Shown: one piece after another, positions 8,010-33,944 of the stretch | Position numbering within the stretch: position 1 is the stretch's first letter | How the letters are laid out: each line of letters begins with the position of its first letter | Assembly: GCA_005888595.1 (NCBI GenBank) | Contig: VBAL01000009.1 | Location: forward strand, 1 to 45,008 | Source: Candidatus Segetimicrobium genomatis | Lineage (GTDB): Bacteria; Sysuimicrobiota; Sysuimicrobiia; Sysuimicrobiales; Kaftiobacteriaceae | Length of the DNA: 45,008 nucleotides | Reading direction: 5' to 3' | Translations under genes and position numbers: made by a program | The notes under the pieces: generated by a model | What the model saw: only the letters and a program-made list of their open reading frames with translations | Database searches by the model: none | Told to the model about the DNA's origin: nothing

Positions 8010-8554
8010 ACGAGGTGGCGCTCGCGAGCCGGCTGCGCGAAGTACCCACCCGTGTGCTCCACGGGCTGCGCCGGCGCGCGGCGCTCGCGGCGCTGCGCCG
8101 TCGTCCTCGTGTGACGTCGCTGCTGGTGGTGTGTCACGGCAACCTGTGCCGCAGCCCGTTCGCCGCGGCGCTGTTGCGCGCATCGCTTGCCGTGCGCGGT
8201 GTGCGCGTCGACTCGGCCGGGTTGTCCGGAACCGGTCGACGGTCGTCGCCCGAGGCGGTCGTGGCGGCGGCGCGCTTTGGCATCGATCTCTCCGCTCACC
8301 GGTCGCAACCCCTGACCGGGGACGGTGCCCGAGCGGTCGATCTCATAATCGTCATGGACTCCGTGCAGCGCCGCGAGGTGTGCGATCGCTTCGGGCGGTC
8401 CGAGCGCGACGTCCTCCTGTTGGGCGACCTCGACCCGGAACCACGGGAACCGCGCACGATCCGGGATCCGGTGAACCAGGCACTCACCGTGTTCGAGGAG
8501 ACCTACGCACGGATCGCGCGCTGCGCGCGTGAGCTGGAGCGGGCGATTGGTTAG
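8006..8554 (+). CDS. Low-molecular-weight protein tyrosine phosphatase (Wzb-like)
   Basis: VCHGNLCRS (CX5R) and IRDP motifs; GTGA overlap with the upstream stop supports GTG8006. Confidence 0.9.
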   Translation: MNEVALASRLREVPTRVLHGLRRRAALAALRRRPRVTSLLVVCHGNLCRSPFAAALLRASLAVRGVRVDSAGLSGTGRRSSPEAVVAAARFGIDLSAHRSQPLTGDGARAVDLIIVMDSVQRREVCDRFGRSERDVLLLGDLDPEPREPRTIRDPVNQALTVFEETYARIARCARELERAIG

Positions 8555-8577
8555 CTTGCTGTCGTCAGGAGCGGCCG

Positions 8578-8955
8578 ATGATCCTCGGAGTGGGGCTCGA
8601 CGTCGTGGAGACGGAGCGGATCGCGCGCGCGCTCGCCCTGCACGGGCGGCGGTTCGAGGAGCGAGTCTACACCGCCGCCGAACTGGCGGAGTGCGCCGAG
8701 CGGGCTGACCGGGCCCAAGCGCTGGCCGGCCGCTTCGCCGCCAAGGAGGCCCTGCTCAAAGCCCTGGGCACCGGCTCGGCGCGCGGCATCTCGTTTCAAC
8801 AGGTCGAAGTGGTCCGGGCGGACGGTGGCAGCCCTACCATGAGCCTGACGGGATCAGCGGCGGCCGAGGCCCGCCGCAAGGGCGTGCGACAGCTTCACGT
8901 GAGCCTCAGCCATCAGCCGGGCCTGGCCGCGGCGGTGGTCATTCTCGAAGGCTGA
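8578..8955 (+). CDS. acpS: Holo-ACP synthase (AcpS-type PPTase)
   Basis: GVGLDVVE, RFAAKEALLKALGTG, VSLSH; 125 aa. Confidence 0.93.
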   Translation: MILGVGLDVVETERIARALALHGRRFEERVYTAAELAECAERADRAQALAGRFAAKEALLKALGTGSARGISFQQVEVVRADGGSPTMSLTGSAAAEARRKGVRQLHVSLSHQPGLAAAVVILEG

Positions 8956-9211
8956 GCTTGGTGCCGTTCCGAGATTTGGTCGCCACGAAGCGGGCGATGC
9001 TGGCGATAGTCCGAAAGTTATCGATCTCGAGATCCTCGAGCGACACGTGAACGCCGAAGTCCTGTTCCAGATGGGCCAGGAATTCGACGAACGTGAGCGA
9101 GTCGACGAGCCCCGTATCGATTAAGTCCGTCTCGAGCGACGGAACCTGCACGTTCAGCTTGTCCGAGAACAGGACGGCAATCCGGCGCTCGAGGTTCGTG
9201 GAGTCCGGCAT
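8939..9211 (-). CDS. Acyl/aminoacyl carrier protein (DltC-like)
   Basis: Acidic 90-aa protein with GLVDSL phosphopantetheine site. Confidence 0.88.
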   Translation of the reverse strand: MPDSTNLERRIAVLFSDKLNVQVPSLETDLIDTGLVDSLTFVEFLAHLEQDFGVHVSLEDLEIDNFRTIASIARFVATKSRNGTKLSLRE

Positions 9212-9212
9212 G

Positions 9213-9716
9213 TCACACGTCCCTGTGTTCGGCGGCCAGCAGATCGAAGAGCAAGCGATCGAGCCGGCGACCGTCGATGCAGTGACACTGCCGCTGCCGC
9301 CCGATGTACCTAAAGTGGAGGCGCTCGAGCACGCGCTGCGCCGGCACGTTCGTCTCCAGGGTCCAAGCGTTGATGGCTTGAAGCCCCAGCTCGGTGAATC
9401 CTAGGGTGAGCATCTTGCTGCACGCCTCCGTTGTGCTGCCACCGTGGCGCTTGCTGCCGAGCACCGCCCACAGCGACGCCGTCTTGAACTTCCGATCCAC
9501 GTTGGTCAGGCCCACCACGCCCACCGGCACGTCTCCGTGATCCGCCGTGTAAGCCCGGATGACCTGGATCTCCCGTTGCGTCATGATCCTCAGCGTCACA
9601 GGCGTCAGCGTCTGGACGCCGTTGCCGAAGTCCAGCCACTTGTAATTCTCGGGCTTGCCGAGCCAGCTGGCCACCAGCTCGATCAGCTCAGGGCTATCCA
9701 GCGGCAACAGTTTCAT
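9213..9716 (-). CDS. GNAT N-acyltransferase (RimJ/RimL-like)
   Basis: PVGVVGL, ASLWAVLG, NVPAQRVLERLHF; AGGAGG upstream of ATG9716; stop lies 1 nt before the ACP start. Confidence 0.8.
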   Translation of the reverse strand: MKLLPLDSPELIELVASWLGKPENYKWLDFGNGVQTLTPVTLRIMTQREIQVIRAYTADHGDVPVGVVGLTNVDRKFKTASLWAVLGSKRHGGSTTEACSKMLTLGFTELGLQAINAWTLETNVPAQRVLERLHFRYIGRQRQCHCIDGRRLDRLLFDLLAAEHRDV

Positions 9717-11310
9717 TGCTCGCAAATGCCTCCTGGAGCAGACGTCGGTCGAATTTGCCGTTCGCGTTCCGCGGCAATCGCTCGTACGCCATCCACCGAG
9801 ACGGCAGCATCGGAGCGGGCAGCAGCTTGGCCAGCGCATGGCGCAACTCACCGGGGGTGACCGCGACCCCGGGCGACGGGACATAGGCACAGCAGATCGC
9901 GGTGCCCTCGAAGCCGTCCGTCGACACAGCGACGACGGCGCACTCTCGCAGGCAAGTCAGCGCGTTCAACGCGGTCTCGATCTCGCCCAGCTCGATGCGA
10001 TAGCCGCGACTCTTGATCTGGGAGTCGGCCCGGCCGAGGAAGTAGACCAGCCCGTCTCCGCCGATGCTCGCGAGGTCCCCGGTTCGATAGATGCGATCCG
10101 CAGGATCGGAAGCGAACGGATTGGGGAGGAAGGCGGCGTGGGTCTTCTCCGCGTCTCTCCAGTATCCCGGGCTCAGGCCCCCGCCCCGGATGTACAGGTC
10201 CCCGACCTCGCCCGGCGGCACCCGCTCCAACCGCTGGTTCAGCACGAGCAATTCCTCCCCTGCGCAGGGCGAGCCGATCGGGATCGCGGCTCGATCGTCC
10301 TCCGGACAGTGCGGCACCGTGTAGTAGCTGCTGGCGATGGTGGTCTCGGTGGGCCCGTACAGGTTTGTGAACTTGACGTGGGGGAGCCGCGTCATCCAGT
10401 ACCGCAGGGCCGGCGTTGGAAAGACCTCGCCGCACCACAACAGCCGTCGCAAAGTGGGGAAGTCATTGAACTTCACCACGTCGAACTTGGCGAGATAGCT
10501 GAGCAGCGAGGGCACCGAAAACCACTGCGTCAGCTCCGCGGTACGGATGAACTGCGCCAGCGCGGTGGGGAGCAAGTTGAGGTCGGGTGGCACGAGGTGA
10601 ATCTGGGCACCGGCGGCGAACGTCCCGAATACATCGAACGTCGACAAATCGAAGTGCAACGGCGGATGACCAGACATCCGGTCCGCAGGCCCGAGCCCGA
10701 AGTAGCCCGTCGCCCACTCTACGAAACGGATCACGCTGCCGTGCGTGATGACGACTCCTTTCGGCGTGCCGGTCGAGCCCGATGTGAACAAGATGTGCGC
10801 AGGATCCCTCGCCTCGTTGCGGAAGGCCAGGGGGCTGGTTGCCGCGCGCCGGACGTCCTCGAGCGAGAATCTGGGCGCGACGTGCTCCCCGACCGCCGGC
10901 CCCCGCCCCTGGTCTAGCCACCCGATCGCCGTCGTGCCCCCCAACTGCTCGTGCGATAGCAGCTCGTCGAGCAGCGGAGCCGCGCTGGAACCCGCCAGAA
11001 TCACCCGTGGCCCTCCCGACTGTACGATCTTCGCGACTCGCGGCGCGGGGCTCGACGGATCGACCGGGATGTAGATGCAGTCCGCCTTCAAGATCCCCAG
11101 CATGCTCACGATGGCGAGGGGAGACTTAGGGAGTAGAAAGCAGACGCGGTCGCCGCGCTCGCACCCGGCGGCCTTCAGGGTGCGCGCCAGCTGGTTACTC
11201 AAGGTGTCCAGTTGCCCGTAGGTCAACCGATCGCCGCCCATCACGAGGGCGGTGGCGTCCGGGCGGCGCTCGGCCTGCCCCATCACCCAGTGCTGCAGCA
11301 GAGAGATCAT
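9694..11310 (-). CDS. Stand-alone amino acid adenylation enzyme (DltA-like)
   Basis: ILFTSGSTGTPKG, FDLS, NLYGPTE, YRTGDL, GRADSQIKSRGYRIELGEIE, LPRNANGK; no fused C or PCP domain. Confidence 0.92.
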   Translation of the reverse strand: MISLLQHWVMGQAERRPDATALVMGGDRLTYGQLDTLSNQLARTLKAAGCERGDRVCFLLPKSPLAIVSMLGILKADCIYIPVDPSSPAPRVAKIVQSGGPRVILAGSSAAPLLDELLSHEQLGGTTAIGWLDQGRGPAVGEHVAPRFSLEDVRRAATSPLAFRNEARDPAHILFTSGSTGTPKGVVITHGSVIRFVEWATGYFGLGPADRMSGHPPLHFDLSTFDVFGTFAAGAQIHLVPPDLNLLPTALAQFIRTAELTQWFSVPSLLSYLAKFDVVKFNDFPTLRRLLWCGEVFPTPALRYWMTRLPHVKFTNLYGPTETTIASSYYTVPHCPEDDRAAIPIGSPCAGEELLVLNQRLERVPPGEVGDLYIRGGGLSPGYWRDAEKTHAAFLPNPFASDPADRIYRTGDLASIGGDGLVYFLGRADSQIKSRGYRIELGEIETALNALTCLRECAVVAVSTDGFEGTAICCAYVPSPGVAVTPGELRHALAKLLPAPMLPSRWMAYERLPRNANGKFDRRLLQEAFASNETVAAG

Positions 11311-11412
11311 CGTCTCACCAGCCCCACGGGCCGCCGCCCATGCCGTGGCTCACGCTCGCTCCTTGAAGAGTCTGGTGCGCAAGGTCCCGCTCGCATTCGC
11401 GTGCCTGACCTG

Positions 11413-11429
11413 TGCATGGGCGGTGCCAG
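11413..11429 (-). promoter_or_regulatory. Candidate sigma54 promoter for the A-domain/GNAT/ACP operon
   Basis: CTGGCACCGCCCATGCA on the minus strand, exact GG-N10-GC spacing, ~100 nt above ATG11310. Confidence 0.55.
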
Positions 11430-11676
11430 AGGCGTAACCGCGTCGGCCTGGGACAAGTGCAGCAACCGACGGGTGACAGCCGTTCTCTAACGCCCAGACC
11501 GAGCGTCGCCGTGGCGCCAGCGCAACAGGCTGTGGTGGGCCGCCCCGCCCTGCGAGCCTGTTCTTATGGTGCCCCCCCGCCGTACTGGGCATTCATCACC
11601 ACCGGCTGCCGCGGGAGGCCGTGCGGGCCTATCCGAGCCGTGTCAACGCGCGTTGCGAGCACTCCCCACACTGCAA

Positions 11677-11708
11677 AGCGCCAGCGGCGGTTGACCGCCG
11701 CTGGCGCT
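11677..11708 (-). terminator. Strong hairpin after the lipoprotein gene
   Basis: Perfect 14-bp inverted repeat agcgccagcggcgg / ccgccgctggcgct with a 4-nt loop, 40 nt past the stop at 11749; short T tail. Confidence 0.7.
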
Positions 11709-11748
11709 CGGGCGTTCCTCTACTCCTCGGACTGCGGCCCTCGCATGA

Positions 11749-13092
11749 TCACTGCTTCACGATATCCCCGCTCGTCACGGTGCCGGACCGCCCGAATCCC
11801 TCCGACGGGAGCCAGAAGCTGATGAAGTCCAAGCCGCTCCCCGCTGGACCGTTGTCGCACACCTGCAACGTGTAGCTCACGACGGCACCCGTGCGCTCCC
11901 TGCCGACGGCGTCGAACTCCACCCCGTGGCTCGGGTCGCTGCAGGCGTTCGAGCTGTTGCGATACGCTGTGAACGACGTCGTGGGGTCTGTCGACGGGTC
12001 CGTTGTAATCGCGCCGGCTTGCCCATCCGGTTGCACGTCGTCGTAAGCGGTGAGCGTGAACCGCCCTGTCAGATCGGCTCGCACGGCGAAGTCGAACGTC
12101 TGCACGCTGTTGCTGAGCGTGGGAGATCCCATCCCCATCTGGCCTTTGCCAATGACACTCGCTACCGGTACACCGCACGTAACGGAGAGGCTCGTCGTGC
12201 CCGTCCCGCCCGCCGGCACCGTGACGGTCTGGGGATTCGCCGTGCTCACCGTGCAGTTCGAAGGCACTCCCGACAGCGTGACGGGGTTATCGCCGGCCGG
12301 CACGGTGAAGGTGACGCTGCCGCTCGTGGCGATCGGTTGGCTTGAGGTGCCATCGACCGTGACGGTGTAGCCATTGGGGGCGTATGAGCCGGTTGTCGTA
12401 GTCGTGACCGTCAGGCTGCCGCTGCCACTGCCGGTCTGGACGCAGCTCACGGAGAAGGGCGCTGGCACCGTCGCGCCGCCCTGCACGGTAACCGTCTGCG
12501 AGTTGGACCCGCTCACCGTGCAGTTCGCCGCGATGCCCGACAGAGTGACCGAGTGACCGCCATCCGTAAGCGCGGTGAACGTGACGCTGCCGTTCGTCGC
12601 GATGGCTTGGCTCGCCCCACCGTCTACCGTGACCGTGTAGCCGTTGGCCGGGAGGTCCACGCCGGTGGTGTTGGCCGAAACGAATAGGCCGCCCTGCGAC
12701 ACGCAGCTCAAGGTGAAGCTGACGGAGTGGGTCGTGCTCCCCGCAATGGGGTCGAAGTCGTAAACCCACCGCGGGTTATTCGGGTTGTCGACTCCACCGA
12801 TCACCCTGCAGTTCGAGGCGATTCCATAGAGGGCCACTACGTGATTGCCCGCCGACAGAACGAAGGCGACCACTCCGTTCGCCCCGACGGGCTGGCTTTG
12901 GGAGTCATCCACCCAGACAGTATAGCCAGCGGGGATGTCGGAGCCCGTGGTGGTGACAGTGACTGTCAATGGGCTGGTCTGCGACAAAAGGTCCCCACCT
13001 GGCTTCGGACTCTGGGGATCCGTACACGCGGTCGCGGCCAGCAGCATCGCGAAGGCCGCTGACAACCCAGTCTGCCCAACGGCGCGTGCCAT
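11749..13092 (-). CDS. Repeat lipoprotein 1: three ~80-aa Ig-like A repeats + one B domain
   Basis: AGGAGG before ATG13092; signal ending LLAATAC; repeats GYTV.VD...NC.V...SC; C-terminal FDFAVRADLTGR...CDNGPAG...SGDI. Confidence 0.85.
   Translation of the reverse strand: MARAVGQTGLSAAFAMLLAATACTDPQSPKPGGDLLSQTSPLTVTVTTTGSDIPAGYTVWVDDSQSQPVGANGVVAFVLSAGNHVVALYGIASNCRVIGGVDNPNNPRWVYDFDPIAGSTTHSVSFTLSCVSQGGLFVSANTTGVDLPANGYTVTVDGGASQAIATNGSVTFTALTDGGHSVTLSGIAANCTVSGSNSQTVTVQGGATVPAPFSVSCVQTGSGSGSLTVTTTTTGSYAPNGYTVTVDGTSSQPIATSGSVTFTVPAGDNPVTLSGVPSNCTVSTANPQTVTVPAGGTGTTSLSVTCGVPVASVIGKGQMGMGSPTLSNSVQTFDFAVRADLTGRFTLTAYDDVQPDGQAGAITTDPSTDPTTSFTAYRNSSNACSDPSHGVEFDAVGRERTGAVVSYTLQVCDNGPAGSGLDFISFWLPSEGFGRSGTVTSGDIVKQ
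11870..11925. repeat. Near-identical direct repeat, copy in lipoprotein 1 B domain
   Basis: 54 of 56 nt identical to 14275-14330. Confidence 0.9.
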
Positions 13093-13334
13093 GAGGCTTC
13101 CTCCTGAAGGTTCCATGCTGCGCAGCAACGCTCTCGCACGCTCAGCGCAAAAAGCGAGCCGCCCCACGCGGCCTGACACAACGAGCTCGCGGGGGGCGCA
13201 TCTGCGGCGCGCGTGCGGCGGGTGAGCGCTTAGCATCGCAGAGGTCGGTGTTGCTTGTGTGCAGCGGCCTGGAGGTCGCAAAAGCCCCCGGGGTGGGGAC
13301 GTAATCCCAAGCCGGCCCGGTGCGCTCGCAACGC

Positions 13335-15395
13335 TCACAATATGAACGTGACCACCTTCGTGTCCGACCCGGAGACGCCGGCGCTATCTGTCACCGTCAC
13401 GCGGATCGTGTAGCTGCCGAACAGGAGATACGTATGCGATGCGCTGATCGTGCCCTGGCTCGAGGTACTGCCCGTCGTCGATGAACCGTCGCCCCAGGTG
13501 ATCGTGTACGACCACGGCCCGTTGTTGTCGGGATCACTGAACGATGCGCTTTCCGTGTAGAAGAGCCCGATCAAGCTTGTCTCGTCCGGCCCGGCGTTCA
13601 CAGTCGGCGGCTGGTTGGGCGTGATGCAACCCACGGAGTAAGAGACCGTCGCCGTCCCGCCCGAGGGCACGGTCACCATGCGGGACGTGCCGCCGCTCAC
13701 TGTGCAGTTACTGGCCACTCCGCTGAGTTCCACGGTGTGCGTGCCGGCCGCCAGGTTCGCAAACGTGACACTGCTGTTGATCCCGATCGCCTGCCTCGTG
13801 GTCTCGTCCACGGTCACCGTGTAGCCACTGGGGACGGATGAGCCTGAGGTGCTGGTCGTGACCGTGAGGTCCCCCGTGATCGCCGCGCAGCTCACGGCGA
13901 AGGCAGCCGTCGCCGTTCCGCCCGAGGGCACCGTGACTGTCTGGGAGTTGCCCCCGCTCACCGTGCAGTTCGCTGCCACGCCGGAGAGGACCACGGCGTG
14001 GCTGCTCGGCGAGAGGCCCGTGAAGGTGACGCTGCCGTTGACCGCGATCGGCTGGCTATTGGTCCCGTCGACCGTCACCATGTAGCCGTCCGGATCGAGG
14101 TTCGAGCCGGTCGTGCTGGTCGAGACAGCGAGCGAGCCCTCTGAGGAGGGCGCAGTCGACTTGGCAATGTCTCCGCTCGTCAGGTTGCCCGAGCGGTCGT
14201 ACGATTCCGACGGGAGGAAGATGCTCCACAAGTCCATCCCGCTCCCAGCCGGTCCGTTGTCGCAGACCGCCACGGTGTAGCTCACGATGGCACCCGTGCG
14301 CTCCCTGCCGACGGCGTCGAATTCCACCCCGCGGCTGCGGTCGCTGCAAGCGCTCGAGCTGTTGCGGTACGCCGTGACGGACGTCGCCGGGTCCGTCGAC
14401 GCATCCGTGGTCAGCGAGGCGACCTTCCCATCCGGCTGCACGTCGCTGTAATCGGTGGCGGTGAACCGCCCCGTCAGGTCGGCCCGCACGTCGAAGTCGA
14501 AGGTCTGCACGTTCGTCCCGGGCGTGGGAGATCCCACCCCGATCTGCCCGAGCCCGGTAACGCGCGGGACCGCGCTTGTGCAGCTCACCGCGAAGGTTGC
14601 GCTCGCTGCGCCGCCGGCGGGCACCGAGACCGTCTGCGGGTTGGCTCCGCTCACCGTGCAGTTGGCCGCCACCCCCGAGAGCGCAACCGGGTGATCACCG
14701 GCGGCGAGGCCGGTAAAGGTGACGCGGCCGTTCGTCGCGCTCAGCTGGGCATTCGTGCCGTCGACGGTGACCGTGTAGCCGTCCACATCCAAGTTCGAGC
14801 CGGAGGTGCTGGTCGAGACAACGAGCGTATCCCCTGAGGAAGAAGCGGCCGACCTGGCGATGTCCCCGCTCGTGACGGAGCCGGAGCGGCTGAATCCCGC
14901 CGACGGCAGGGCTATGCCGAAGAAGTCCAGACCGTTCTCCGGTGGCCCGTTGTCGCACGCGACCACGGTGAAAGCCACTAGCGCTCCCGTGTCCTCCCGG
15001 CCGGTTCCGTCGAACTCCGCCCCGCGACTCGGGTCGCTGCAGGCGCCCGACGCCATCCGGAACGCTGTGACCGCCGTCCCGGCATCCGTCGGATCCACGC
15101 GCAGCGTCGGGGCGCTCCCGTCGGCTCTGCCCTCGCCGTAATCGGAGACCGTGAGTCTCCCAGTCAGATCGGATCGCACGTCGAAGTCGAACGCCATCTC
15201 AGCCCGGGTCCCGATGCGCCCGAGCCCGGCGATGCGCACGATCACGGGGCTTGCCGTAGCGTCATGTCTGGGGCCGAGGCGCTCAGGACTAGCGGCATCA
15301 TGACAACCCACGCCGAGCAGCGCGGCTGCGAGGAGTCCCGGAAGGCTAGCGAGCGGTTGCCGCTTTCTGGCCGTGATGCCGCCTCTCTGGTGCAA
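13335..15395 (-). CDS. Repeat lipoprotein 2: B-A-B-A-A-PKD architecture
   Basis: Signal ending LLGVGC; two B domains, three A repeats; C-terminal PKD-like domain (NQPPTVNAGPD, TITWGDG, HTY, TVTD); TTG start uncertain. Confidence 0.85.
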   Translation of the reverse strand: MHQRGGITARKRQPLASLPGLLAAALLGVGCHDAASPERLGPRHDATASPVIVRIAGLGRIGTRAEMAFDFDVRSDLTGRLTVSDYGEGRADGSAPTLRVDPTDAGTAVTAFRMASGACSDPSRGAEFDGTGREDTGALVAFTVVACDNGPPENGLDFFGIALPSAGFSRSGSVTSGDIARSAASSSGDTLVVSTSTSGSNLDVDGYTVTVDGTNAQLSATNGRVTFTGLAAGDHPVALSGVAANCTVSGANPQTVSVPAGGAASATFAVSCTSAVPRVTGLGQIGVGSPTPGTNVQTFDFDVRADLTGRFTATDYSDVQPDGKVASLTTDASTDPATSVTAYRNSSSACSDRSRGVEFDAVGRERTGAIVSYTVAVCDNGPAGSGMDLWSIFLPSESYDRSGNLTSGDIAKSTAPSSEGSLAVSTSTTGSNLDPDGYMVTVDGTNSQPIAVNGSVTFTGLSPSSHAVVLSGVAANCTVSGGNSQTVTVPSGGTATAAFAVSCAAITGDLTVTTSTSGSSVPSGYTVTVDETTRQAIGINSSVTFANLAAGTHTVELSGVASNCTVSGGTSRMVTVPSGGTATVSYSVGCITPNQPPTVNAGPDETSLIGLFYTESASFSDPDNNGPWSYTITWGDGSSTTGSTSSQGTISASHTYLLFGSYTIRVTVTDSAGVSGSDTKVVTFIL
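14275..14330. repeat. Near-identical direct repeat, copy in lipoprotein 2 second B domain
   Basis: 54 of 56 nt identical to 11870-11925. Confidence 0.9.
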
Positions 15396-17866: not shown

Positions 17867-19039
17867 CTAGTTGGGACGATCCTGGTCACCGTCGGACTTC
17901 GTCAGGTACAGGTGCCCTGAACGGACCAGAGCATTGAGCTGGCCGCGCATGGCGGATGGCAGCCGCATCAGTGCCGTCATGCAGAAGCGCCCCGTCTCGA
18001 GTGGTTGCAGTCTTGTCGGGAAGGCAGGCTCGTCATCAGTCATACTCTCCAGCCTGAACCCCACCTCCTCTAGTCCTCGCGCCACGGTTGCGGAGCTGCA
18101 GTAGAAGTCCACATAAGCGACCCCGAGCTCCCTAGCGGCTTGGAGGGTGGCGCGCGCCAGGGCCGTCTGGGCTGCCGGATTCCCCAAAAACTCCACCACC
18201 CGCATGACTGTTTCCGTCCGGCCACGAACCTGCTCGACCCGAAACACGGTCAGACCTATCACACTACCATCATTGCGACGCATGGCCAGTCGAACCTCGT
18301 AGCGAAGGCGCGGGTGGTGCACGTACCGCCAGCGGACAAACCGAGCATCGCGTGCCGTGCCCACGATCGTCCCGGCGACTTGGTCCTTCCAGTAATGGTC
18401 CCACGCGGTCCCGAGCTCGTCTCGCCACGGCAACACCTCCACTGTGCTTCCGCTCGCCACGGGGCCACCGGGAGGGATCTCTGCTCGGTAGCGTTCGCAG
18501 AAGCGCTCAGCGGCGTCCAGACCGAGCCCTTCGTTGCAGTCCGCGAGCAATCGAGCCGCCAAGGAGACATTCACTACGCCGATCCACCGGGGCACTGCGC
18601 CGACCGTCTCGAACTGTACGGCGCGCAGTAACTTGGTGGCCATTGGGTTCGCGCCGTTCGTCGCGACAACGTCGACCCCCAGCTCCAGTACGGCACGCAG
18701 CAGCCCGTAGGCAACATTGTGACGACGGTACAGTGGGCTCGCGAACCAGTGCGATAGCCACACCGCGGACCCCGCCGTTCCTCCGAGCGTCATCTCACAC
18801 CCTGTCAGACCGAACATCCCCACGATCGTGTCGCCCAGCCAAGCCAGCATGACCGTCGGTGCCGCGACGTGCCAGCCGGGCACCAGACTGCAATCGAATT
18901 GCCAGCGCAGCAGTTGCTCGTCACGACTCAGCACGTGGCCCGCGCGCCACTCTGCGTCAATGAACCGCATCAGGGGTGCGATGTCTTGTTCCCGACACAA
19001 AGCCGTGCGAATGCTCGGCTCGGTCACAGATCCTCCCAC
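17867..19039 (-). CDS. GNAT/FemAB-like fold hypothetical protein
   Basis: LLRWQF, VGMFG, VATNGANPMA, RDARFVRWRY pattern seen in glycan-locus GNAT-like proteins; true start may be GTG19027 (GGAGG upstream). Confidence 0.55.
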   Translation of the reverse strand: MGGSVTEPSIRTALCREQDIAPLMRFIDAEWRAGHVLSRDEQLLRWQFDCSLVPGWHVAAPTVMLAWLGDTIVGMFGLTGCEMTLGGTAGSAVWLSHWFASPLYRRHNVAYGLLRAVLELGVDVVATNGANPMATKLLRAVQFETVGAVPRWIGVVNVSLAARLLADCNEGLGLDAAERFCERYRAEIPPGGPVASGSTVEVLPWRDELGTAWDHYWKDQVAGTIVGTARDARFVRWRYVHHPRLRYEVRLAMRRNDGSVIGLTVFRVEQVRGRTETVMRVVEFLGNPAAQTALARATLQAARELGVAYVDFYCSSATVARGLEEVGFRLESMTDDEPAFPTRLQPLETGRFCMTALMRLPSAMRGQLNALVRSGHLYLTKSDGDQDRPN

Positions 19040-19058
19040 AGGGTCGACGCGCCCCGGC

Positions 19059-20060
19059 TCAGCGCGGCTGCGCTGCCCCAGCTTCCACGGGCTCTCGACC
19101 TCGCTTTGTCCATTCGCTCAGGGGCGCATCGCCCGCACAGGGCAGGTCATTGGTGTCCAAGCGGGCCAGCTCCAATGGACTGGAAAGGTCAGGCACCAGC
19201 CCGACCCTGGTGGTGAGCCCCACCGCGCAGCCAGCCTCCTGAAGCAGGTCCAGCGTGTGCTTCGAATAACTCCCATAGGGATAAGACATGATCCAATTCG
19301 TCGGTCGGCGTCCGATCACGGCCTCGAGGAGAGACATGGTCTGCCGAATGTCCTCACGCTGCTCGGCCGGCGCCAAGGATTCGAGCCAGTCATGCCCGTA
19401 CCCGTGTCCACCAATGGCCATGCCGTACCGAGCCAGGCAACGCAACTGCGCCAAGTCCATGTACAACTCCTCGGCAAAGCTCGGGAGATCGGCGCTCACG
19501 TACCGCTGGAACAGGGCTCGGCAGATGTCCGCTCTAACCCGCGGTGGCAGCACGCGCTGCAGCAGGCGCTTGAGAAACGTCACGTCGGGCGAATCGAACC
19601 GACCCGGGCCAGCACCCATCCGATACAGAGTCAGAGGATCAGGAAGAGCCACGGCTGAGCGATGGGCCTCCACGAGACTCAACACTTCATCAACTAGGCG
19701 ACGGGGATCGTGAACGCTGGCTAACACGAAGTGAATCATGTGCACATCGAGGACGGTGTGCTCCTGAACAGGCCGGACCGCTGGGCAGAATACGGCCGCA
19801 ATCCCCCGCTCTTCGAGACGCGGGAAGACCGTCGTATAATGGTCCTTCAATCCGTCGTCGAAGGTCAGCAGGCAGGCGTTGGGTGGCAGCACCGTGTCAC
19901 CCTGTACCGCTGCGACGACCTCGTCGGGACGGCAGACGGTGTAGTGCTTCGTGAGATAGTCCAGCTGCCCTTCGAACCGATGTGTCGAGAGGCCGCGGAT
20001 CTCTGGAAACCGCGTCCGTGCGAGGTCCCGGACGTAGTGATACATCACGATCGTGAGCAT
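19059..20060 (-). CDS. Polysaccharide deacetylase (NodB/CE4 family)
   Basis: MYHYVR, LTFDDG, GHGYGH, SYPYG motifs; start moved to ATG20060. Confidence 0.88.
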   Translation of the reverse strand: MLTIVMYHYVRDLARTRFPEIRGLSTHRFEGQLDYLTKHYTVCRPDEVVAAVQGDTVLPPNACLLTFDDGLKDHYTTVFPRLEERGIAAVFCPAVRPVQEHTVLDVHMIHFVLASVHDPRRLVDEVLSLVEAHRSAVALPDPLTLYRMGAGPGRFDSPDVTFLKRLLQRVLPPRVRADICRALFQRYVSADLPSFAEELYMDLAQLRCLARYGMAIGGHGYGHDWLESLAPAEQREDIRQTMSLLEAVIGRRPTNWIMSYPYGSYSKHTLDLLQEAGCAVGLTTRVGLVPDLSSPLELARLDTNDLPCAGDAPLSEWTKRGREPVEAGAAQPR

Positions 20061-20082
20061 CAGATCTGGAGCTCCACGATCG

Positions 20083-20616
20083 TCAAAGGCCCACGAGTGT
20101 GTCGTCGCTTGCGCACTTAGCACTCCCCGAGAGGGGGAGGGCGGCCAACGCCTCCCGCAGCGCTGCCACCAGCGAAGCGAGCAGCACTGGACAGTCGGTA
20201 CCGACGGCGATTGCGCAGGCTACCCGAGGAGTATGTTCCCAACACACGACGACGTCTGATAGGTGCATCTGCTCGGCCCGCGCGGCAGCGCCGCGCCACA
20301 ACGCCACTGCGGGTCGTTCCTCTCCCGGCGTCCAGCGAATCTCAATGTCCCTACCGCTCACCGCGGCTGCGCCGCTCAGATCGAGGCCAGTGCCTAGGGC
20401 CTTGGCCACCGCCTCCTTCGCCGTGTAATAGAGGGCGAGCAGGAGAGGGTTGCCGCTCGTACTCGCGCGCTCCCCAGAGGTGTAGACTCGGTCAAAGAAA
20501 GCGCGACCACCTGGCTTCATGACCAGATTGAATCGCTCGATGGACTCTAGATCGATTCCCAGGCACCTTACCGGTGCATCGGGCCCTGCCAGCGCAAGCG
20601 AGCGCGCGGCGGTCAC
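20083..20616 (-). CDS. AcpS-like phosphopantetheinyl transferase
   Basis: LGIDLESIERF and YTAKEAVAKALGTG; GTG20616 lies 1 nt after the ACP stop. Confidence 0.82.
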   Translation of the reverse strand: MTAARSLALAGPDAPVRCLGIDLESIERFNLVMKPGGRAFFDRVYTSGERASTSGNPLLLALYYTAKEAVAKALGTGLDLSGAAAVSGRDIEIRWTPGEERPAVALWRGAAARAEQMHLSDVVVCWEHTPRVACAIAVGTDCPVLLASLVAALREALAALPLSGSAKCASDDTLVGL

Positions 20617-20617
20617 G

Positions 20618-20869
20618 TCACCGGCCTGGCGACCGCAGACCAACCCTCTGATCAACGAGGGCGAGCACTTCAGTCACCGATGTGCAGCGGGTGAGCTCGT
20701 CGGGTGCAACGGTTAGGGCGAACTGCTCGTCGATCAGCGCCATCGTCGCCAGGACCGCCACTGAGTCCCAGCGCTCCGCCAAAGAAAGACCTGACTGGAG
20801 CGTGGTCGCGTCCACCTCAAATACGTCTGCCAATTTCGCGAGAAAACTCGTGCTAATGTCAGCATCCAT
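20618..20869 (-). CDS. Acyl carrier protein
   Basis: Small acidic protein with RWDSVA attachment site. Confidence 0.85.
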   Translation of the reverse strand: MDADISTSFLAKLADVFEVDATTLQSGLSLAERWDSVAVLATMALIDEQFALTVAPDELTRCTSVTEVLALVDQRVGLRSPGR

Positions 20870-20881
20870 GAGCGACCCCAA

Positions 20882-21913
20882 CTAGAAAGAGACTCGGATC
20901 ATACCCGCCGCCCAGGAGTAGCCGACGCCGAAGCCTACCAGCATGACCCGGTGTCCGCTGGTGATCCTCCCACCGCGCCTCGCCCTCTCTAACGCCAGCG
21001 GAATCGTCGAGGAAACAGTGTTGCCGCAGTCCTCTAGATCAATACAAAACTTTTCGGGAGCGATCTTTAGCTTGTTACGGAGACGCTCGAGCATAAACCG
21101 GTTCGCCTGATGAAACACGAAGTAATCCACTCCGTGCGGTCCGCCGTTGGACTTCGACAGTAGCTGCTCGACTGCGAGGGGGACCGTGCTCAGCGTAAAG
21201 TTGAAAATCTCCGGCCCGTTCATGAAGAGATTTTGCTCCGACCGCCAGTTGCCCCCTTCCGCCTCCCTGGCGACCGCCGTCTCTGGGCTGGGCTGCCGTC
21301 GCAGCCCCCCGACCGGAACGATCAGCTGGCACGCTCCCCTGCCATCGGTGCCCAGGACGAAGGGTCCGATTAGCTCCTCGTTCGCGTGACTGCGCACGAC
21401 GAGGGTCGCCGCTGCACCGTCTCCGAAGATCGCACGGACGCTGCGGTCTCGCGGATGTAGAAACTTGGTGTAGGTATCCGCGGTCACGAGCAGCACGCAC
21501 GACGCGGTACCGGCTTCCACGAGGCTCTTGGCGAGCGCCAGCCCGTAGACGAACCCGGAGCACCCCTGGTTGATGTCCACGGCGCCGCAGCTCGTCCGCA
21601 ATCCGAGCCGAGTTTGCATCGTGCACGCAGTAGCCGGCAGGAAGTAGTCTGGGGTCTGCGTGCAGAAGATGAGAAAGTCAACCGCGCTCGGGGCGCACAC
21701 TCCGCTCTCGAAGAGCCGCTGGGCGGCTGCCACACCCAGGTCCGACGCGCACTCCCCTTCGGCGGAGACCCGCCTGCTGCGGATCCCCGTCTTATCAAAA
21801 ATCTTCTCGGGCGTCCAGTCGCTCAGCTCCCTCGCGAGATCTTCGTTCGTCAACTCGCCGACCGGCAAGTGAGTAGCGATGGCAGCGATGGCCGCCGTCA
21901 GACGTTCACCCAT
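20882..21913 (-). CDS. 3-oxoacyl-ACP synthase III (FabH-like)
   Basis: Cys-His-Asn triad: NQGCSGF, FHQAN, GNTVSS; GFGVG; GAGGAG RBS. Confidence 0.92.
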   Translation of the reverse strand: MGERLTAAIAAIATHLPVGELTNEDLARELSDWTPEKIFDKTGIRSRRVSAEGECASDLGVAAAQRLFESGVCAPSAVDFLIFCTQTPDYFLPATACTMQTRLGLRTSCGAVDINQGCSGFVYGLALAKSLVEAGTASCVLLVTADTYTKFLHPRDRSVRAIFGDGAAATLVVRSHANEELIGPFVLGTDGRGACQLIVPVGGLRRQPSPETAVAREAEGGNWRSEQNLFMNGPEIFNFTLSTVPLAVEQLLSKSNGGPHGVDYFVFHQANRFMLERLRNKLKIAPEKFCIDLEDCGNTVSSTIPLALERARRGGRITSGHRVMLVGFGVGYSWAAGMIRVSF

Positions 21914-24781: not shown

Positions 24782-25735
24782 TTACTGGACAGGATTGGGG
24801 TCTGCCGCACGCATCTCCTCCTCTAGCACGGCCTGGCGTCGGACAACGTCTCCCACTCCGCTCAGCGGTGGGGCAAGCCTGGCGTCTCCAGCTTCCTCGA
24901 GGAGGCTCTGCTCGACTCGCCCAGCCAGAGCTCTCAAGGTGGGGGCGGTGAGAGTGTCTTCCAGCGGCAGCTCGATCTGGAAAGCACTGCGGATGCCGAA
25001 GGCCACCTGGATCGACGACAGAGTGTTTCCACCCAGATCGAGGAAGCTGTCCTCGATCCCCACGTGGTCGACCCGCAAGACACGCCTCCAGATCTCCACC
25101 AGCGTCGCTCCAATGGGCGTGCGCGGGGCCGCCACGGGCCCTGTGCGATCGGAGCGCACGTGGTCCGGACTCGGCAGGGCATGACGGTCCACCTTGCCAT
25201 TGGCCGTACGGGGGAGCACGTCAAGAACCACGAAACTGGTGGGGACCATCGCGGCGGGCAGACTCCGTGCGAGAAAGTCCCGCAAGGTACTCGACGTCGG
25301 GGTCGGTCCCCAGTTCCCGCCCACATAGGCGATCAAGCGCAAGTCGCCTGGCGTTTCCTCACCGTGCCACCACCACCGCTTCCCGCACGGCGGCGTGGTT
25401 CGCGAGCGCGTGCTCGATTTCTCCCGGCTCCATGCGATGCTCGCGGATCTTGACCTGGTGATCGATGCGACCAAGGAACTCCACGGTGCCATCGGCCCGA
25501 TATCGCGGCAAGTCGCCGGTCGGATACAGGCGTGCGTCGAGATCGGTCGATAGATGTTCAGGATGTCGGCCGCGGGCGCCTCCTGTAACGCTGCCACGAC
25601 ATCTGCTGTCAGCGCCTCACCTCCGACGAGCACGGTGCGCAGGGTGCTCAGGGCGTCCCGGGTCGGCGCCTCCGCGAGCAGCAGTCGGGCCTGGGAGGGC
25701 GTGCATTGGATGTGGGTCCACCCGGTGTTGACGGA
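24782..25735 (-). pseudogene. Decayed NRPS A-domain C-terminal half + PCP
   Basis: [46 protein letters not shown] and LGGNTL spread over shifted frames, with an internal deletion and an in-frame TGA at 25359-25361. Confidence 0.85.
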
Positions 25736-26888
25736 TCCGCTCGGGAATGCTCGGGGCGTCGGGCTGCGCGGCATTGACGCGCTGCTTCAGTCGGTTCAGG
25801 TGGGGCAAGTGCCCTAGCACGATCTCCGGGTCGACGCCGAAGTCGATCAGACACGCTAGCTCATCCACATCGATTGCCTTGAGCCGTTCGAGCATCCGGA
25901 GGCACGTGTCCGCGCCGCCGAACAGGCCGCTGGTCTCAAAGTAGCGCTCGAACGCGAAGGCGAGCAGCGCCTCCATGTGCTCCCGGCTCAAGTTCTGGAA
26001 TTCATCCCCCGACACCGGCGTCGCATCAGACCCCTTCCGGCGCCGCTCCGCCCACGCCCCGGCGAAGTTCTTGATGAGGCTGACCGAGCTCCGTAGGTAC
26101 TCGATCATCGGCTGCCTCACGATCTCACGCACGCTGTCGTCGTCTTCTCCGACAAACGTGTGCAGCATCAGTGTGACCTGTCCGCGTCCAGGGTGTCCGT
26201 GCTGCTCCCAGCTCCGCCGATACGCCGCGATTCGGTCACGAAGCTCCTCGACTGTCTGCCCGAGGAGGTGCGTGAGCAGATTCGCGCCAATGCGGCCAGC
26301 CGCTTCGTACGTCTCGGTGCTTCCGGCGCTCGTCACCCAGACCGGGAGCTCGGGCTGCACTGGCCGGGGCAGGGTACGGACGACCACTGGCGCTCCCGTG
26401 ACGCCCGGAAAGCTGAGGGTCTCCCCGCGCCACAGCTTGCGCACGGTCTCGATGTGCCGATACATGAGCTCTTTGCGCTCGGCATAGTTACCGGGCGCCA
26501 GCACGAAGTCCTCGGGCTGCCATCCCGAGGCGAAGGATATCCCCACCCGCCCGTTGGAGAGGTTATCGACAACTGCCCATTCTTCCGTCACCCGGACGGG
26601 ATGATGGAGCGGCAGCACAACACTCCCAGCTCGGATCTGAATCCGCTCGGTGATCGCAGCGATGGCTGCCGCGCTGACCGACGGGTTGGGATACAGACCA
26701 CCGAAGCTGTGGAAATGGCGCTCGGGCGTCCACACGGCGGCGAAGCCGTGACGGTCCGCGAACCGCGCGCCGTCCAATAACAAGCGGTACTGGTCCGCAC
26801 GCTGTTCACTCCCGCCGCTGGCGAAGTAGAACAGGCTGAAATGCATGGGGGAAAGCGGATAGCGGTCGACGAGCGAAGAGGCTGTCAT
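25617..26888 (-). CDS. MupA/Atu3671-type luciferase-like monooxygenase domain (N-terminal part of the NRPS relic)
   Basis: FSLFYFAS, AVWTPERHFHSFGGLYPNPSV, RAGSVVLPLHHP, EEWAVVDNLSNGRVG, VDELACLIDFG; frame continuous through the domain. Confidence 0.88.
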   Translation of the reverse strand: MTASSLVDRYPLSPMHFSLFYFASGGSEQRADQYRLLLDGARFADRHGFAAVWTPERHFHSFGGLYPNPSVSAAAIAAITERIQIRAGSVVLPLHHPVRVTEEWAVVDNLSNGRVGISFASGWQPEDFVLAPGNYAERKELMYRHIETVRKLWRGETLSFPGVTGAPVVVRTLPRPVQPELPVWVTSAGSTETYEAAGRIGANLLTHLLGQTVEELRDRIAAYRRSWEQHGHPGRGQVTLMLHTFVGEDDDSVREIVRQPMIEYLRSSVSLIKNFAGAWAERRRKGSDATPVSGDEFQNLSREHMEALLAFAFERYFETSGLFGGADTCLRMLERLKAIDVDELACLIDFGVDPEIVLGHLPHLNRLKQRVNAAQPDAPSIPERIRQHRVDPHPMHALPGPTAARGGADPGRPEHPAHRARRR

Positions 26889-27079: not shown

Positions 27080-28315
27080 TTACGCTCCTGTTGCGGGCTG
27101 TATCTCAACATTCGGACGATCACCTGCAACTTCCTGTTGAAGCGCCCTGATCACGCGGCGCTGCTCTTCTTCCGTCAGACTCGTGGAGCACGGGATGCTT
27201 AGCGCCAGCCGGTTGACCCGGCTGGCCACCGGACAGGAGCGGGCGAAGCTCTCACGATGCGCCGGACTGAGATGCAGCGGCTGCCAAAGGGGCCGGGTCT
27301 CGATGTTGGAAGCGGCCAGCGCCTTCCGCAAGGATCGACTGTCGGTACCGCACCGCTCGGCATCCACCAGGATCGTGTACATCCAGTAGGACGCGGTGGC
27401 CCACGGCGCTTCTTTCATCGGTTGGATACCAGGCAGTTCTTCCAACGCCTCGGCATACCGTGTCGCGATCCGGCGCTTCGTGGCGACAAAGGCCGGAAGG
27501 CGCTCGAGCTGGGCACAACCAAGCGCCGCCTGCACACTCGTGAGCCGATAGTTGTACCCGATTTCGTGATGCACGAATTCCAATGGGTCGTCTTTCGCTT
27601 GCGTAGTGAGGTAGCGAGCGCGCTGCGCTAGTTGTGGGTCGTCCGTGACGAGCATCCCTCCCCCGCCCGTCGTCATTACCTTGTTCGCGTTGAAGCTGAA
27701 GCACGTCAGTCGGCTCCACTGTCCGAGCGGCTTGCCGCGGCACAGGGCGCCCAAGGATTCTGTAGCATCCTCAACCATAGCCAGTCCATACTGCTCGGTG
27801 ATCTTCTGGATAGCCGGCAAATCACAGGGGTGCCCGAGAATGTCCACCGGCAGGACCGCCACGACTCGCCGCCCCGTGTGGCGGTTGTGCAGCTCACCCC
27901 GCGACACCCTACAATCGTCCCGCAGAAAAGCGCGCAGCTCGCCGGGGTCGAGCTGCCAGTAGTCTTGATCCACATCGATGAACGTCGGCCAAGCCCCGAC
28001 GTAGCGGACCGCATTGGCAGGGGCGATGAAGGTCAACGATGGCAGAATTACCTCGTCTCCCGGCTGCACACCGGCCAGCAGGAGCGCTGTGTGCAGCGCA
28101 GCTGTGCCGCTCGTCGTGGCCACGGCGTACGGCACTCCACAGGCGGCGGCGAAGTCTCGCTCGAAGCGCTCGACAAACGGCCCGACCGACGACACCCAGC
28201 CCGTGTTGAGGCACTCCTCTATGTAGGGCCGTTCGTTCCCGCCAATGTTGGGAACGCAGAGGGGGATGGGATGGGCACGTGGTGCGGGACCCGGCCCGCC
28301 CGTCCTAGATGGCAT
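27080..28315 (-). CDS. legC: LegC-family PLP aminotransferase (DegT/DnrJ)
   Basis: GWVSSVG, TTSGTAALH, VEDATESLG, FSFNANKVMTTGGGG, GYNYRL; start moved to ATG28315. Confidence 0.85.
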   Translation of the reverse strand: MPSRTGGPGPAPRAHPIPLCVPNIGGNERPYIEECLNTGWVSSVGPFVERFERDFAAACGVPYAVATTSGTAALHTALLLAGVQPGDEVILPSLTFIAPANAVRYVGAWPTFIDVDQDYWQLDPGELRAFLRDDCRVSRGELHNRHTGRRVVAVLPVDILGHPCDLPAIQKITEQYGLAMVEDATESLGALCRGKPLGQWSRLTCFSFNANKVMTTGGGGMLVTDDPQLAQRARYLTTQAKDDPLEFVHHEIGYNYRLTSVQAALGCAQLERLPAFVATKRRIATRYAEALEELPGIQPMKEAPWATASYWMYTILVDAERCGTDSRSLRKALAASNIETRPLWQPLHLSPAHRESFARSCPVASRVNRLALSIPCSTSLTEEEQRRVIRALQQEVAGDRPNVEIQPATGA

Positions 28316-33819: not shown

Positions 33820-33927
33820 GGTCGCAGGCTCCACAGGGAAGGGAAGAGGTGGTGGTTCCACTTGCTCGCGATCGTTACGGTGCCCCTGCGCGGCAGGTGC
33901 CGGAGATGAGTTGTCGCCCCCCCACCG

Positions 33928-33944
33928 TGCAAATAGCTTGCCCG
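33928..33944 (-). promoter_or_regulatory. Candidate sigma54 promoter for the nonulosonate operon
   Basis: CGGGCAAGCTATTTGCA on the minus strand = GGCA-N6-TTGC, ~110 nt above GTG33819. Confidence 0.55.

Follow-up and report, generated by a model that had tools for sequence, protein, structure and literature searches.

By what route could an amino acid that is activated by a stand-alone adenylation enzyme reach a surface glycan when the Dlt transfer proteins are lacking? This question is raised by a small locus on contig VBAL01000009.1 of Candidatus Segetimicrobium genomatis (assembly GCA_005888595.1), of which positions 1 to 45,008 were analyzed (hereafter the window). The locus consists of genes for an adenylation (A) enzyme, a small acyltransferase of the GNAT type and an acyl carrier protein (ACP), which converge on a gene for an AcpS-type holo-carrier-protein synthase. 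The A/GNAT/ACP set is probably a carrier-protein-dependent aminoacylation module for a surface glycan. To judge from the order of genes in its relatives, it is a truncated, monooxygenase-less form of a widespread cassette, for which there is no curated family name and for which a literature search gave no paper combining its components. That the small GNAT itself passes the aminoacyl group from the carrier to a sugar amine is a reading that we hold at somewhat less than even confidence, and it is weighed below against the other roles that this enzyme could play.

Organization of the module and its carrier protein

All four genes of the module are intact, in a window with a G+C content of about 66%. 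The A gene (9694-11310, reverse strand) encodes a stand-alone enzyme of 538 amino acids (aa) of the nonribosomal peptide synthetase (NRPS) type, with matches to TIGR01733 and to the Pfam domains AMP-binding and AMP-binding_C. It overlaps by 23 nt (9694-9716) with the GNAT gene (9213-9716, reverse strand; 167 aa; Acetyltransf_3, 44.6 bits), and 1 nt separates the GNAT stop codon (9213-9215) from the start codon (9211-9209) of the ACP gene (8939-9211, reverse strand; 90 aa; PP-binding, 45.6 bits). An earlier reading made from the letters of the window (the sequence-only reading) had described these three genes as tightly coupled and as converging on acpS (8578-8955, forward strand; 125 aa) with a 17-nt overlap. 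The overlap and the junction given above bear out the coupling, and the convergent overlap is confirmed at 8939-8955. The start of the GNAT gene was placed at the conserved MKLLPLD at 9716, common to 25 aligned homologues, which makes a 225-aa open reading frame (ORF) and a 208-aa database call for this gene over-extensions of the 167-aa protein. A scan of 8300-11900 for promoters and terminators returned nothing above chance. The identities of these genes and their packing are direct observations, as are the family conservation and the genomic association described in the following sections.

The carrier protein has its phosphopantetheine serine in the motif GLVDSLTFVE. Its scores against the DltC models TIGR01688 (25.6 bits; cut-off 52.35) and NF003464 (33.5 bits; cut-off 68) are below the cut-offs, and no specific ACP or DltC model passes its cut-off for this 90-aa protein. 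The best matches in the PDB are stand-alone type II peptidyl carrier proteins (PCPs), with DltC behind them (E ~6e-4). By these comparisons the ACP is a generic type II carrier and not a specifically DltC-like one. The label DltA/DltC-like that the module had been given does not hold as membership of the Dlt family, the DltA models also being below their cut-offs (see the next section).

The AcpS passes both of its models (NF000832, 115.3 bits against a cut-off of 107; TIGR00516, 105.8 against 59.8) and may prime the 90-aa carrier. Its convergent overlap with the ACP gene recurs elsewhere, with 17 nt in loci L111 and L112 and 8 nt on contig C185, and other genes lie between ACP and AcpS in L006, L117, and L119. 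In a set of 80 further metagenome loci encoding the GNAT (flanks of at most 10 kb per side, contig permitting), AcpS is present in 19, many of which have a low-molecular-weight tyrosine phosphatase beyond it. We read AcpS as a conserved edge marker of a variable glycan island, and therefore the 17-nt overlap as a consequence of deletion rather than proof of a dedicated phosphopantetheinyl transferase (PPTase).

The absence of an MBOAT protein, DltD and a condensation domain, which the sequence-only reading had reported for the window, extends to the entire assembly. Searches for MBOAT (PF03062) and DltD (PF04914) gave no match in the whole assembly, with positive controls, and a search for condensation domains gave none either; MBOAT and DltD are also absent from the Pfam lists of the related loci. 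These assembly-wide absences are weaker than they look, because the window contig is probably mis-binned or transferred and may come from another organism. An LpxL-family acyltransferase of the AlmG type is not among the Pfam matches of the large window ORFs, although no dedicated search for one was made.

The adenylation pocket and the wider cassette

The A domain passes the model for NRPS-type amino acid adenylation (TIGR01733, 384.7 bits against 317.4), and its core motifs A3, A5, A7, A8, and A10 are intact in the translation (TSGSTGTPKG, NLYGPTE, YRTGDL, GRADSQIKSRGYRIELGEIE, and NGKFDR). It falls below the cut-offs of the DltA equivalogs TIGR01734 (268.9 bits; cut-off 559.85) and NF003417 (280; cut-off 476), and below that of the exosortase A-associated acyl-CoA ligase TIGR03098 (254.8 bits; cut-off 592.35). 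Some related loci contain FemAB-like and CE4 genes, which we take to be typical of exosortase-type extracellular polysaccharide (EPS) loci. The best PDB matches are NRPS A domains, and LgrA is the best full-length solved match (482 bits). Motif anchoring, together with HMMER alignments to PltF, AlmE, and LgrA, places the pocket residues at D221, L222, F225, F264, L291, C293, L317, I325, A326, and K519. The resulting code, D-L-F-F-L-C-L-I-A-K, is the one that had been read by hand from the sequence, and the FDLS and CGE features in common with DltA are likewise present. Among 12 homologues from several phyla (65% to 82% identity), nine code positions are invariant, and the tenth, F225, is nearly so. 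Because the pocket is near-invariant across these homologues, the whole A family should share one substrate.

From the pocket, that substrate is most likely a small amino acid, either glycine or D-alanine. Seven of the ten code positions agree with Vibrio cholerae chain 4OXI (glycine; D-L-H-L-F-C-L-I-A), which we take to be AlmE, although the PDB title does not name it. Five agree with the LgrA domain at residues 1415-1525 (glycine; D-I-A-N-L-C-I-I-Y), presumably the glycine-specific module 2, and five with PltF (L-proline; D-L-L-Y-L-A-L-V-C). Relative to the D-alanine cavity of DltA, Asp221, Leu222, and Cys293 are present and the Met is replaced by Phe225; the same Cys is found in the glycine-type pockets of AlmE and LgrA module 2. 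The pocket is thus of the small-substrate, Cys-containing type common to DltA, AlmE, and the glycine module of LgrA, as had been proposed. The methyl group of D-alanine in DltA sits in a cavity formed by Leu, Met, and Cys, in which the Cys excludes L-alanine and sets D-selectivity (PMC8972799), and AlmE activates glycine and mis-activates D-alanine (PMC12930378). A point on the other side is that, among solved structures, PltF, an L-proline ligase, and not DltA gives the best match to the specificity region, so that L-proline is a possible though less likely substrate. It was ranked below glycine and D-alanine, since the residues at positions 301 and 331, which are swapped relative to PltF, are those of AlmE.

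Relatives of the A enzyme fall into thousands of clusters, the close ones being 62% to 90% identical across phyla. They span Gemmatimonadota, Latescibacteria, Binatia, Deltaproteobacteria, a gammaproteobacterium, Actinomycetota, and Chloroflexota, and named members are labelled only "amino acid adenylation domain-containing protein". In a scan of contigs a generic A-domain pattern predominated, so that true orthologues made up only about 8 of 80 loci.

The gene order around these relatives is conserved. In Gemmatimonadales the unit comprises an SsuD-like luciferase-like monooxygenase (LLM), whose gene has a 4-nt overlap with that of the A enzyme, followed by A, GNAT, and ACP. In Deltaproteobacteria, Binatia, Latescibacteria, a Sulfurifustis metagenome-assembled genome (MAG), Solirubrobacterales, and the 'ANGP1' lineage, the monooxygenase and A are followed by nothing, an ArnA/Fmt-like formyltransferase or a GNAT, and then by the ACP. 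In these lineages the ACP is usually succeeded by a 365-aa protein without a Pfam family, and a flavin reductase is found in two of the loci (L022 and L110). The general order of the cassette is therefore SsuD-like monooxygenase, A, a slot with a GNAT, a formyltransferase or nothing, ACP, and optionally a flavin reductase and a tandem GNAT. It is present in Gemmatimonadota and at least five other phyla, in loci of the EPS or O-antigen type, and is common among soil bacteria. The related contexts are polysaccharide loci with GT4/GT2 glycosyltransferases, Wzy_C, a flippase, AsnB-like amidotransferases, and CE4 deacetylases, and the proposed linkage to glycan loci was found in every related genome examined.

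The monooxygenase gene is present in the relatives L004, L006, L009, and L113, the last of which has an A enzyme 89% identical to that of the window. In the window the site of this gene is a non-coding stretch of 438 nt (11311-11748), in which tblastn detected no monooxygenase remnant upstream of A. The gene is missing as well from two close relatives found in other samples, L111 and L112, in which A is 86% identical and the 17-nt ACP/AcpS overlap is the same, and so the short form is real and stable. A luciferase-like gene at 25617-26888 of the window was considered as a displaced cassette monooxygenase and rejected, as it belongs with the MupA/Atu3671 enzymes (524.8 bits) and is not similar to the SsuD-like enzyme.

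Three further features of these loci were observed. Locus L109 (G038:C107, 2484-12423) has only A and ACP and encodes neither a monooxygenase nor a small or tandem GNAT; its neighbors are genes for a 419-aa protein with a weak GDSL/SGNH match, a 320-aa unknown protein, Wzy, a MaoC dehydratase, and an FkbH-like protein that has an ACP of its own, and it points to yet another transferase partner for the A-ACP pair. Two tandem repeat-rich secreted proteins or lipoproteins without a Pfam family (window 11749-15395) are syntenic neighbors of the module, and homologues with 55% to 76% identity lie beside the cassette in L004, L006, L111, and 36 of the 80 metagenome loci. A protein of about 550 aa with a GINT1_N (GH43-like) domain is encoded 30 kb away from the module in the window (39493-41160) and at L009:12396-13997; it follows the ACP directly in about 10 related loci and occurs somewhere in 18 of the 80 (L125, L136, L138, L140, L142, L168, L176, and L186 among those recorded).

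The contig that carries the module probably either comes from Gemmatimonadota and was mis-binned or represents a large island acquired by transfer. The phylum of the assembly has 94 species representatives, and its genus is shared with an 'ANGP1' MAG. The window AcpS is 80% to 85% identical to those of L006, L111, and C185, in loci that are syntenic with Gemmatimonadales contigs, and only 41% to 47% identical to those of genomes of the same family, most of which have one copy and two of which have two. The assembly's own family-type AcpS lies on another contig (C174:12504-12857). Likewise, the A domain is 77% to 90% identical to its closest homologues (77% to 82% for named Gemmatimonadales proteins) and 61% to 63% identical to same-genus orthologues. 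For a contig of 45 kb, the tetranucleotide distance of the window (0.0157) is high and its profile mildly atypical. A second copy of the unit, with about 80% nucleotide identity, is found on C185 (408-4338) in the order SsuD-like monooxygenase, A, GNAT, ACP, and convergent AcpS. Its A gene is frameshifted near 2092-2119, with the N-terminal 164 aa 66% identical to the window A and the rest 84%; this copy is either a co-binned relative or a duplication.

The role of the small GNAT

In the route that we favor, the A domain would adenylate a small amino acid (glycine and D-alanine being the likeliest) and thioesterify it onto the phosphopantetheine arm of the 90-aa carrier, which would have been primed by the adjacent AcpS or another PPTase of the window. 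The small GNAT would then use aminoacyl-S-ACP as its donor, and a free amine on a sugar precursor in the cytoplasm would receive the aminoacyl group. In the sublineage of the window the likely acceptor would be an intermediate of the legionaminic acid (Leg) pathway, a product deacetylated from it by CE4, or another amino sugar of the locus. The inferred elements of this route are the substrate, the loading of the ACP by the A domain and, most of all, which donor and which acceptor the GNAT uses. We put forward still more tentatively an extended version of this route, in which the GNAT N-aminoacylates a cytoplasmic amino sugar or nonulosonate precursor with glycine or D-alanine and, in the full cassette, the SsuD-like monooxygenase first oxidizes the tethered amino acid, which would give an undescribed acyl decoration of the glycan. 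If true, the aminoacyl-ACP GNAT route would be an MBOAT-independent, Dlt-like one that explains N-aminoacyl sugars such as Leg5Ac7Ala.

Several lines of evidence are consistent with aminoacyl transfer by the small GNAT. Like carrier-protein-dependent GNATs of the SbzI, MbtK, and FeeM type, the small GNAT is encoded with a dedicated carrier and an adenylating enzyme. Homologues of the GNAT form at least 887 clusters, and the ACP lies directly downstream of the GNAT in 71 of 76 loci. The pair is kept where A is on the other strand (L190 and L193) or where the order is A-ACP-GNAT (L021), and in L181 as well. Most of the GNAT loci (74 of 80) have no tandem GNAT in their flanks. In two Gemmatimonadota genomes with the cassette there is no member of the 365-aa family and a weak or no match to the related 390-aa family described below, which makes the small GNAT the only acyltransferase-like partner there, and L111 contains no other transferase candidate either. 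Small carrier-protein-dependent GNATs are known from the SbzL/SbzG/SbzI system, FeeM, and GdvG (PMC11685415), and N-aminoacyl glycans exist, including Leg5Ac7(D-Ala) in Escherichia coli O161 (PMC10609480, PMC7685785).

The fold of the enzyme is of little help in choosing between roles. The AlphaFold2 (AF2) model of the 167-aa protein (predicted local distance difference test score, pLDDT, 90.4) has the GNAT fold, with Foldseek template modelling (TM) scores of 0.74 to 0.83 to many GNATs. Its neighbors include a lasso-peptide acetyltransferase, PseH (second-best, TM 0.78), SpeG, YdaF, MccE, and RimJ. The match to PseH is no better than those to SpeG or YdaF, and the PseH equivalog TIGR03585 is well below its cut-off (24.7 bits against 93.1; E 2e-5). 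Assignment of a role by fold was therefore rejected, as only generic acetyl-CoA GNATs are found at similar scores and the comparison does not discriminate. Two sequence features of the family were also recorded: residues 24-31 (NYKWLDFG) are strongly conserved, N, W, L, D, F, and G without exception, and residues 139-145 (GR.R.CH; RQCH) contain a Cys-His pair, likewise invariant, where strand beta-6 ends, a pair that is unusual for GNATs of the RimJ/RimL type.

The GNAT-ACP pair is also found without the rest of the cassette. Among 37 well-flanked GNAT loci, A is present in 22, and 15 have GNAT-ACP without A or monooxygenase; on the GNAT tree these 15 fall into at least four distinct clades. 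These A-less pairs (L143, L151-L169, and others, with no A or monooxygenase within 3.4 to 10 kb) usually stand directly after a repeat lipoprotein gene at the edge of a glycan island. The ratio of nonsynonymous to synonymous substitution rates (dN/dS) of the GNAT is 0.19 in A-less loci and 0.20 in complete cassettes, compared with 0.39 and 0.14 for the ACP, in a small sample with unequal divergences.

Other observations weigh against the small GNAT as the aminoacyl transferase. All of its sequence and fold neighbors are acetyl-CoA-dependent N-acetyltransferases, and RimJ, MccE, and YdaF act on the alpha-amines of aminoacyl or peptidyl substrates. In cassettes with a tandem GNAT after the ACP, the GNAT slot can be empty (L001 and L019) or occupied by an ArnA/Fmt-like formyltransferase (L002, L003, and L023), which suggests that the small GNAT is an optional tailoring enzyme where the 365-aa tandem GNAT is present; a tandem-GNAT homologue lies within the window as well (17867-19039). 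The steady dN/dS of the GNAT beside a relaxed ACP in A-less loci is a hint that the enzyme may function independently of the carrier. In addition, the Leg operon of the window has its own PglD-like acetyltransferase, and NeuB is found in none of the 80 other GNAT loci. The proposal of the sequence-only reading that the GNAT transfers an aminoacyl group thus remains plausible, but it is one of three live readings, and the fold matches are to acetyl-CoA enzymes only.

The tandem-GNAT protein is a rival candidate for the transferase. The window gene (17867-19039, reverse strand) encodes a 390-aa protein that has no Pfam match itself and whose homologues carry Acetyltransf_9. It aligns over its full length with the 365-aa cassette protein, for which there is a weak Acetyltransf_9/NMT-like match, with an hhalign probability of 96.8% (E 2.5e-10), so that the two families are remote homologues. 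The AF2 model of the 390-aa protein (pLDDT 91.2) leads in Foldseek to tandem GNATs of the NMT/Eis type. In the window it closes a block (17867-21913) that also encodes a FabH-like beta-ketoacyl-ACP synthase III (KAS III), an 87-aa ACP (ACP2), an AcpS-like PPTase, and CE4. Its relatives stand directly after FabH-ACP in L106, with a 4-nt overlap, or beside AMP-ligase and carrier genes in L107 and L108. Because of the tandem-GNAT fold and these FabH-ACP and AMP-ligase neighbors, the 390-aa family may well, independently of the small GNAT, comprise acyl-ACP acyltransferases of glycan loci, and the block at 17867-21913 may define a new family of such enzymes. An operon in L022 combines monooxygenase, A, GNAT, FabH, 3-hydroxyacyl dehydrogenase, a second GNAT, ACP, flavin reductase, the 365-aa protein, and CE4. 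Its gene content would fit a decoration like the N-(3-hydroxybutanoyl)-D-alanyl group, which is known on Qui4N in E. coli O123 (PMC10609480).

With a second candidate family for the transfer, the small GNAT could instead use acetyl-CoA to acetylate the alpha-amine of the ACP-tethered amino acid, and the capped group would be transferred to the sugar by another enzyme, such as a tandem GNAT of the 365/390-aa family, the KAS III-like enzyme or an unknown one. We regard this as possible but, on balance, doubtful. N-capping would mirror the formylation of Val-S-PCP by the formylation domain of LgrA, and it agrees with the variable slot between A and ACP in otherwise equivalent cassettes. The alternating formyltransferase was set aside as evidence for capping, as the match is ambiguous: ArnA (107 bits) and Fmt (98 bits) are nearly equal, so that the enzyme may act on a sugar and not on an aminoacyl group, and the LgrA formylation domain is not among the matches. 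The tandem GNAT follows the ACP in at least five phyla, together with the small GNAT in L020, L022, and L110; its family is found beside ACP and acyl-activating genes in three further unrelated contexts, and the window homologue adjoins a CE4. Such an enzyme is lacking, however, from the flanks of 74 of the 80 GNAT loci and, as far as the 365-aa family is concerned, altogether from the two Gemmatimonadota genomes mentioned above, L111 is without any other candidate, and L022 has its second GNAT copy behind FabH and the 3-hydroxyacyl dehydrogenase. The alpha-amine acetyltransferases RimJ, MccE, and YdaF among the fold neighbors are consistent with capping, as is the invariance of the putative acceptor-side motif NYKWLDFG across very different glycan loci, which would be expected for a constant aminoacyl-ACP acceptor. 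N-acetyl-aminoacyl groups on amino sugars are also known, for example N-acetylglycyl-Qui4N (PMC10609480).

It is distinctly unlikely, in our view, that the GNAT is an ordinary PseH-like sugar-amine N-acetyltransferase that uses acetyl-CoA while some other enzyme consumes the aminoacyl-ACP. The weak match to the PseH model and the second place of PseH among the fold matches would agree with this role, as would the acetyl-CoA dependence of all structural neighbors and the undiminished purifying selection on the GNAT after loss of A and monooxygenase, when the ACP is relaxed. Its score is far below the PseH cut-off, however, its adjacency to the ACP survives separation from A (71 of 76 loci; L021, L181, L190, and L193), and among about 100 loci examined the family occurs only in the context of the cassette. 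All readings beyond aminoacyl transfer, N-capping, and sugar N-acetylation are together unlikely. One of them, which we consider very improbable, is that the GNAT is a loader or decarboxylase acting on the carrier, like the GNAT-like domains that stand ahead of the ACP in the loading modules of CurA and GphF, or that the module makes a small FeeM-like diffusible N-acyl amino acid instead of decorating a glycan. GNAT-like decarboxylases and FeeM are among the known carrier-protein-dependent GNATs (PMC11685415), and the pairs without an adenylating enzyme (15 of 37 loci, at least four separate clades) and the invariant Cys-His pair could be understood in this way; against it, no polyketide synthase or lipid genes adjoin the pair, every context is a glycan locus, and no similarity to the CurA, GphF or FeeM families appears among the PDB matches of the GNAT.

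Possible acceptors and comparison with known systems

If the small GNAT does transfer the aminoacyl group, a candidate source of its acceptor is the complete Leg-type nonulosonate operon of the window (27080-34062, reverse strand). By Pfam it encodes a DegT aminotransferase, a LegB-like dehydratase, a CBS-nucleotidyltransferase, a PglD-like acetyltransferase, a hydrolyzing 2-epimerase, and a CMP-transferase/NeuB fusion. The CE4 polysaccharide deacetylase (19059-20123, reverse strand; Polysacc_deac_1, 67.9 bits) could free a sugar amine for re-acylation, and a CE4 also follows the tandem GNAT in L022. In L111 a Leg operon with 81% to 90% protein identity lies 4 kb from A-GNAT-ACP, in the order Leg operon, CE4, A, GNAT, ACP, and AcpS; a MupA-type monooxygenase gene, a 64-aa ORF, the CE4, and one unknown gene stand between operon and module. 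The 80 further metagenome loci contain no NeuB, CE4 or FabH in their flanks of at most 10 kb per side. The suggested nonulosonate link is thus supported in the sublineage of the window and is not general. The sequence-only reading had recommended phylogenetic profiling with leg genes; a profile of A across the phylum was uninformative on the Leg link, with an A orthologue (61% to 63% identity) in only 5 of 94 genomes, and pointed instead to the probable binning problem described above. Close to the Leg operon, the MupA-type monooxygenase and a 330-aa ORF with an A-domain fragment and a PCP (24782-26888) look like the relic of a two-module NRPS. In a relative, L106:1433-7602, this NRPS is intact (A-LLM-A-PCP, 980 aa; C-A-PCP, 1041 aa) and is accompanied by hydrolases and an Sfp-type PPTase, beside CapD and NeuB genes.

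Several N-acyl sugar groups of the kind considered here are chemically documented, including D-alanyl-Leg, N-acetylglycyl-Qui4N, and N-(3-hydroxybutanoyl)-D-alanyl-Qui4N (PMC10609480, PMC7685785). The enzymes that install them are largely unassigned, and the cassette is a concrete and widely distributed candidate. If the GNAT is an aminoacyl-ACP transferase, it would be a third transferase solution for Dlt-type activation, after DltB/DltD and AlmG, and would add a new class of donor for sugar-modifying GNATs. If it is an N-capping enzyme, the tandem-GNAT family of 365 and 390 aa would become a new family of acyl-ACP transferases. The class of substrate, the glycan context, and the coupling of GNAT and ACP are well supported.

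The mycobactin proteins MbtM, MbtL, and MbtK follow the same logic of adenylating enzyme, carrier, and GNAT. In altemicidin biosynthesis, SbzL, SbzG, and SbzI are an adenylating enzyme, a carrier, and a small GNAT that N-acylates an amine from a carrier-bound acyl group (PMC11685415), a use of donor that is proposed for the window module. In contrast to the module, both systems belong to secondary-metabolite pathways and handle acyl groups other than amino acids; no sequence relationship to the Sbz or Mbt GNATs was detected, and SbzI (8ZT3) is not in the Foldseek top 50. N-acylation of a carrier-bound amino acid, the precedent for a capping role, is known from the F-A-PCP initiation region of LgrA in linear gramicidin synthesis, and related cassettes do have a formyltransferase beside A. 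LgrA is a fused megasynthetase with condensation domains, whereas the module consists of separate proteins without such a domain, and its cap would be acetyl. For E. coli O161, a Lea pathway to CMP-Leg5Ac7(D-Ala) with a predicted "Lea3 alanyltransferase" has been proposed (PMC7685785, PMC10609480), and what would make it comparable to the window is its combination of a Leg operon with the attachment of alanine to a Leg nitrogen. The Leg operon of the window, as a point of difference, keeps a PglD-like acetyltransferase, so that any aminoacylation would require a freed or additional amine.

With Dlt the module shares the logic of A enzyme and carrier, the FDLS and CGE motifs, and the Asp, Leu, and Cys of the D-alanine cavity, and AcpS-type priming is plausible. 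It differs in lacking DltB and DltD and in falling below the DltA and DltC models, in a host that is didermal and Gemmatimonadota-like, and in its presumed target, a cytoplasmic sugar amine instead of an extracytoplasmic hydroxyl. AlmE, AlmF, and AlmG of V. cholerae offer a nearer parallel, as a stand-alone DltA-like A enzyme and a dedicated small carrier are combined there too with a transferase that is neither MBOAT nor DltD; AlmG acts at the cytoplasmic face and moves glycine to a surface glycolipid, lipid A (PMC12930378). The code positions shared with AlmE include Cys301, Leu322, Ile330, and Ala331, whereas identity over the full length is low (171 bits). AlmG is of the LpxL type and forms an ester on lipid A, in contrast to the small GNAT of the window, its EPS/nonulosonate locus, and the FMN monooxygenase of the ancestral cassette. 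The module is therefore not a member of the Dlt family, but in its logic it is closest to Dlt, and especially to AlmEFG, with parts that resemble SbzL/SbzG/SbzI.

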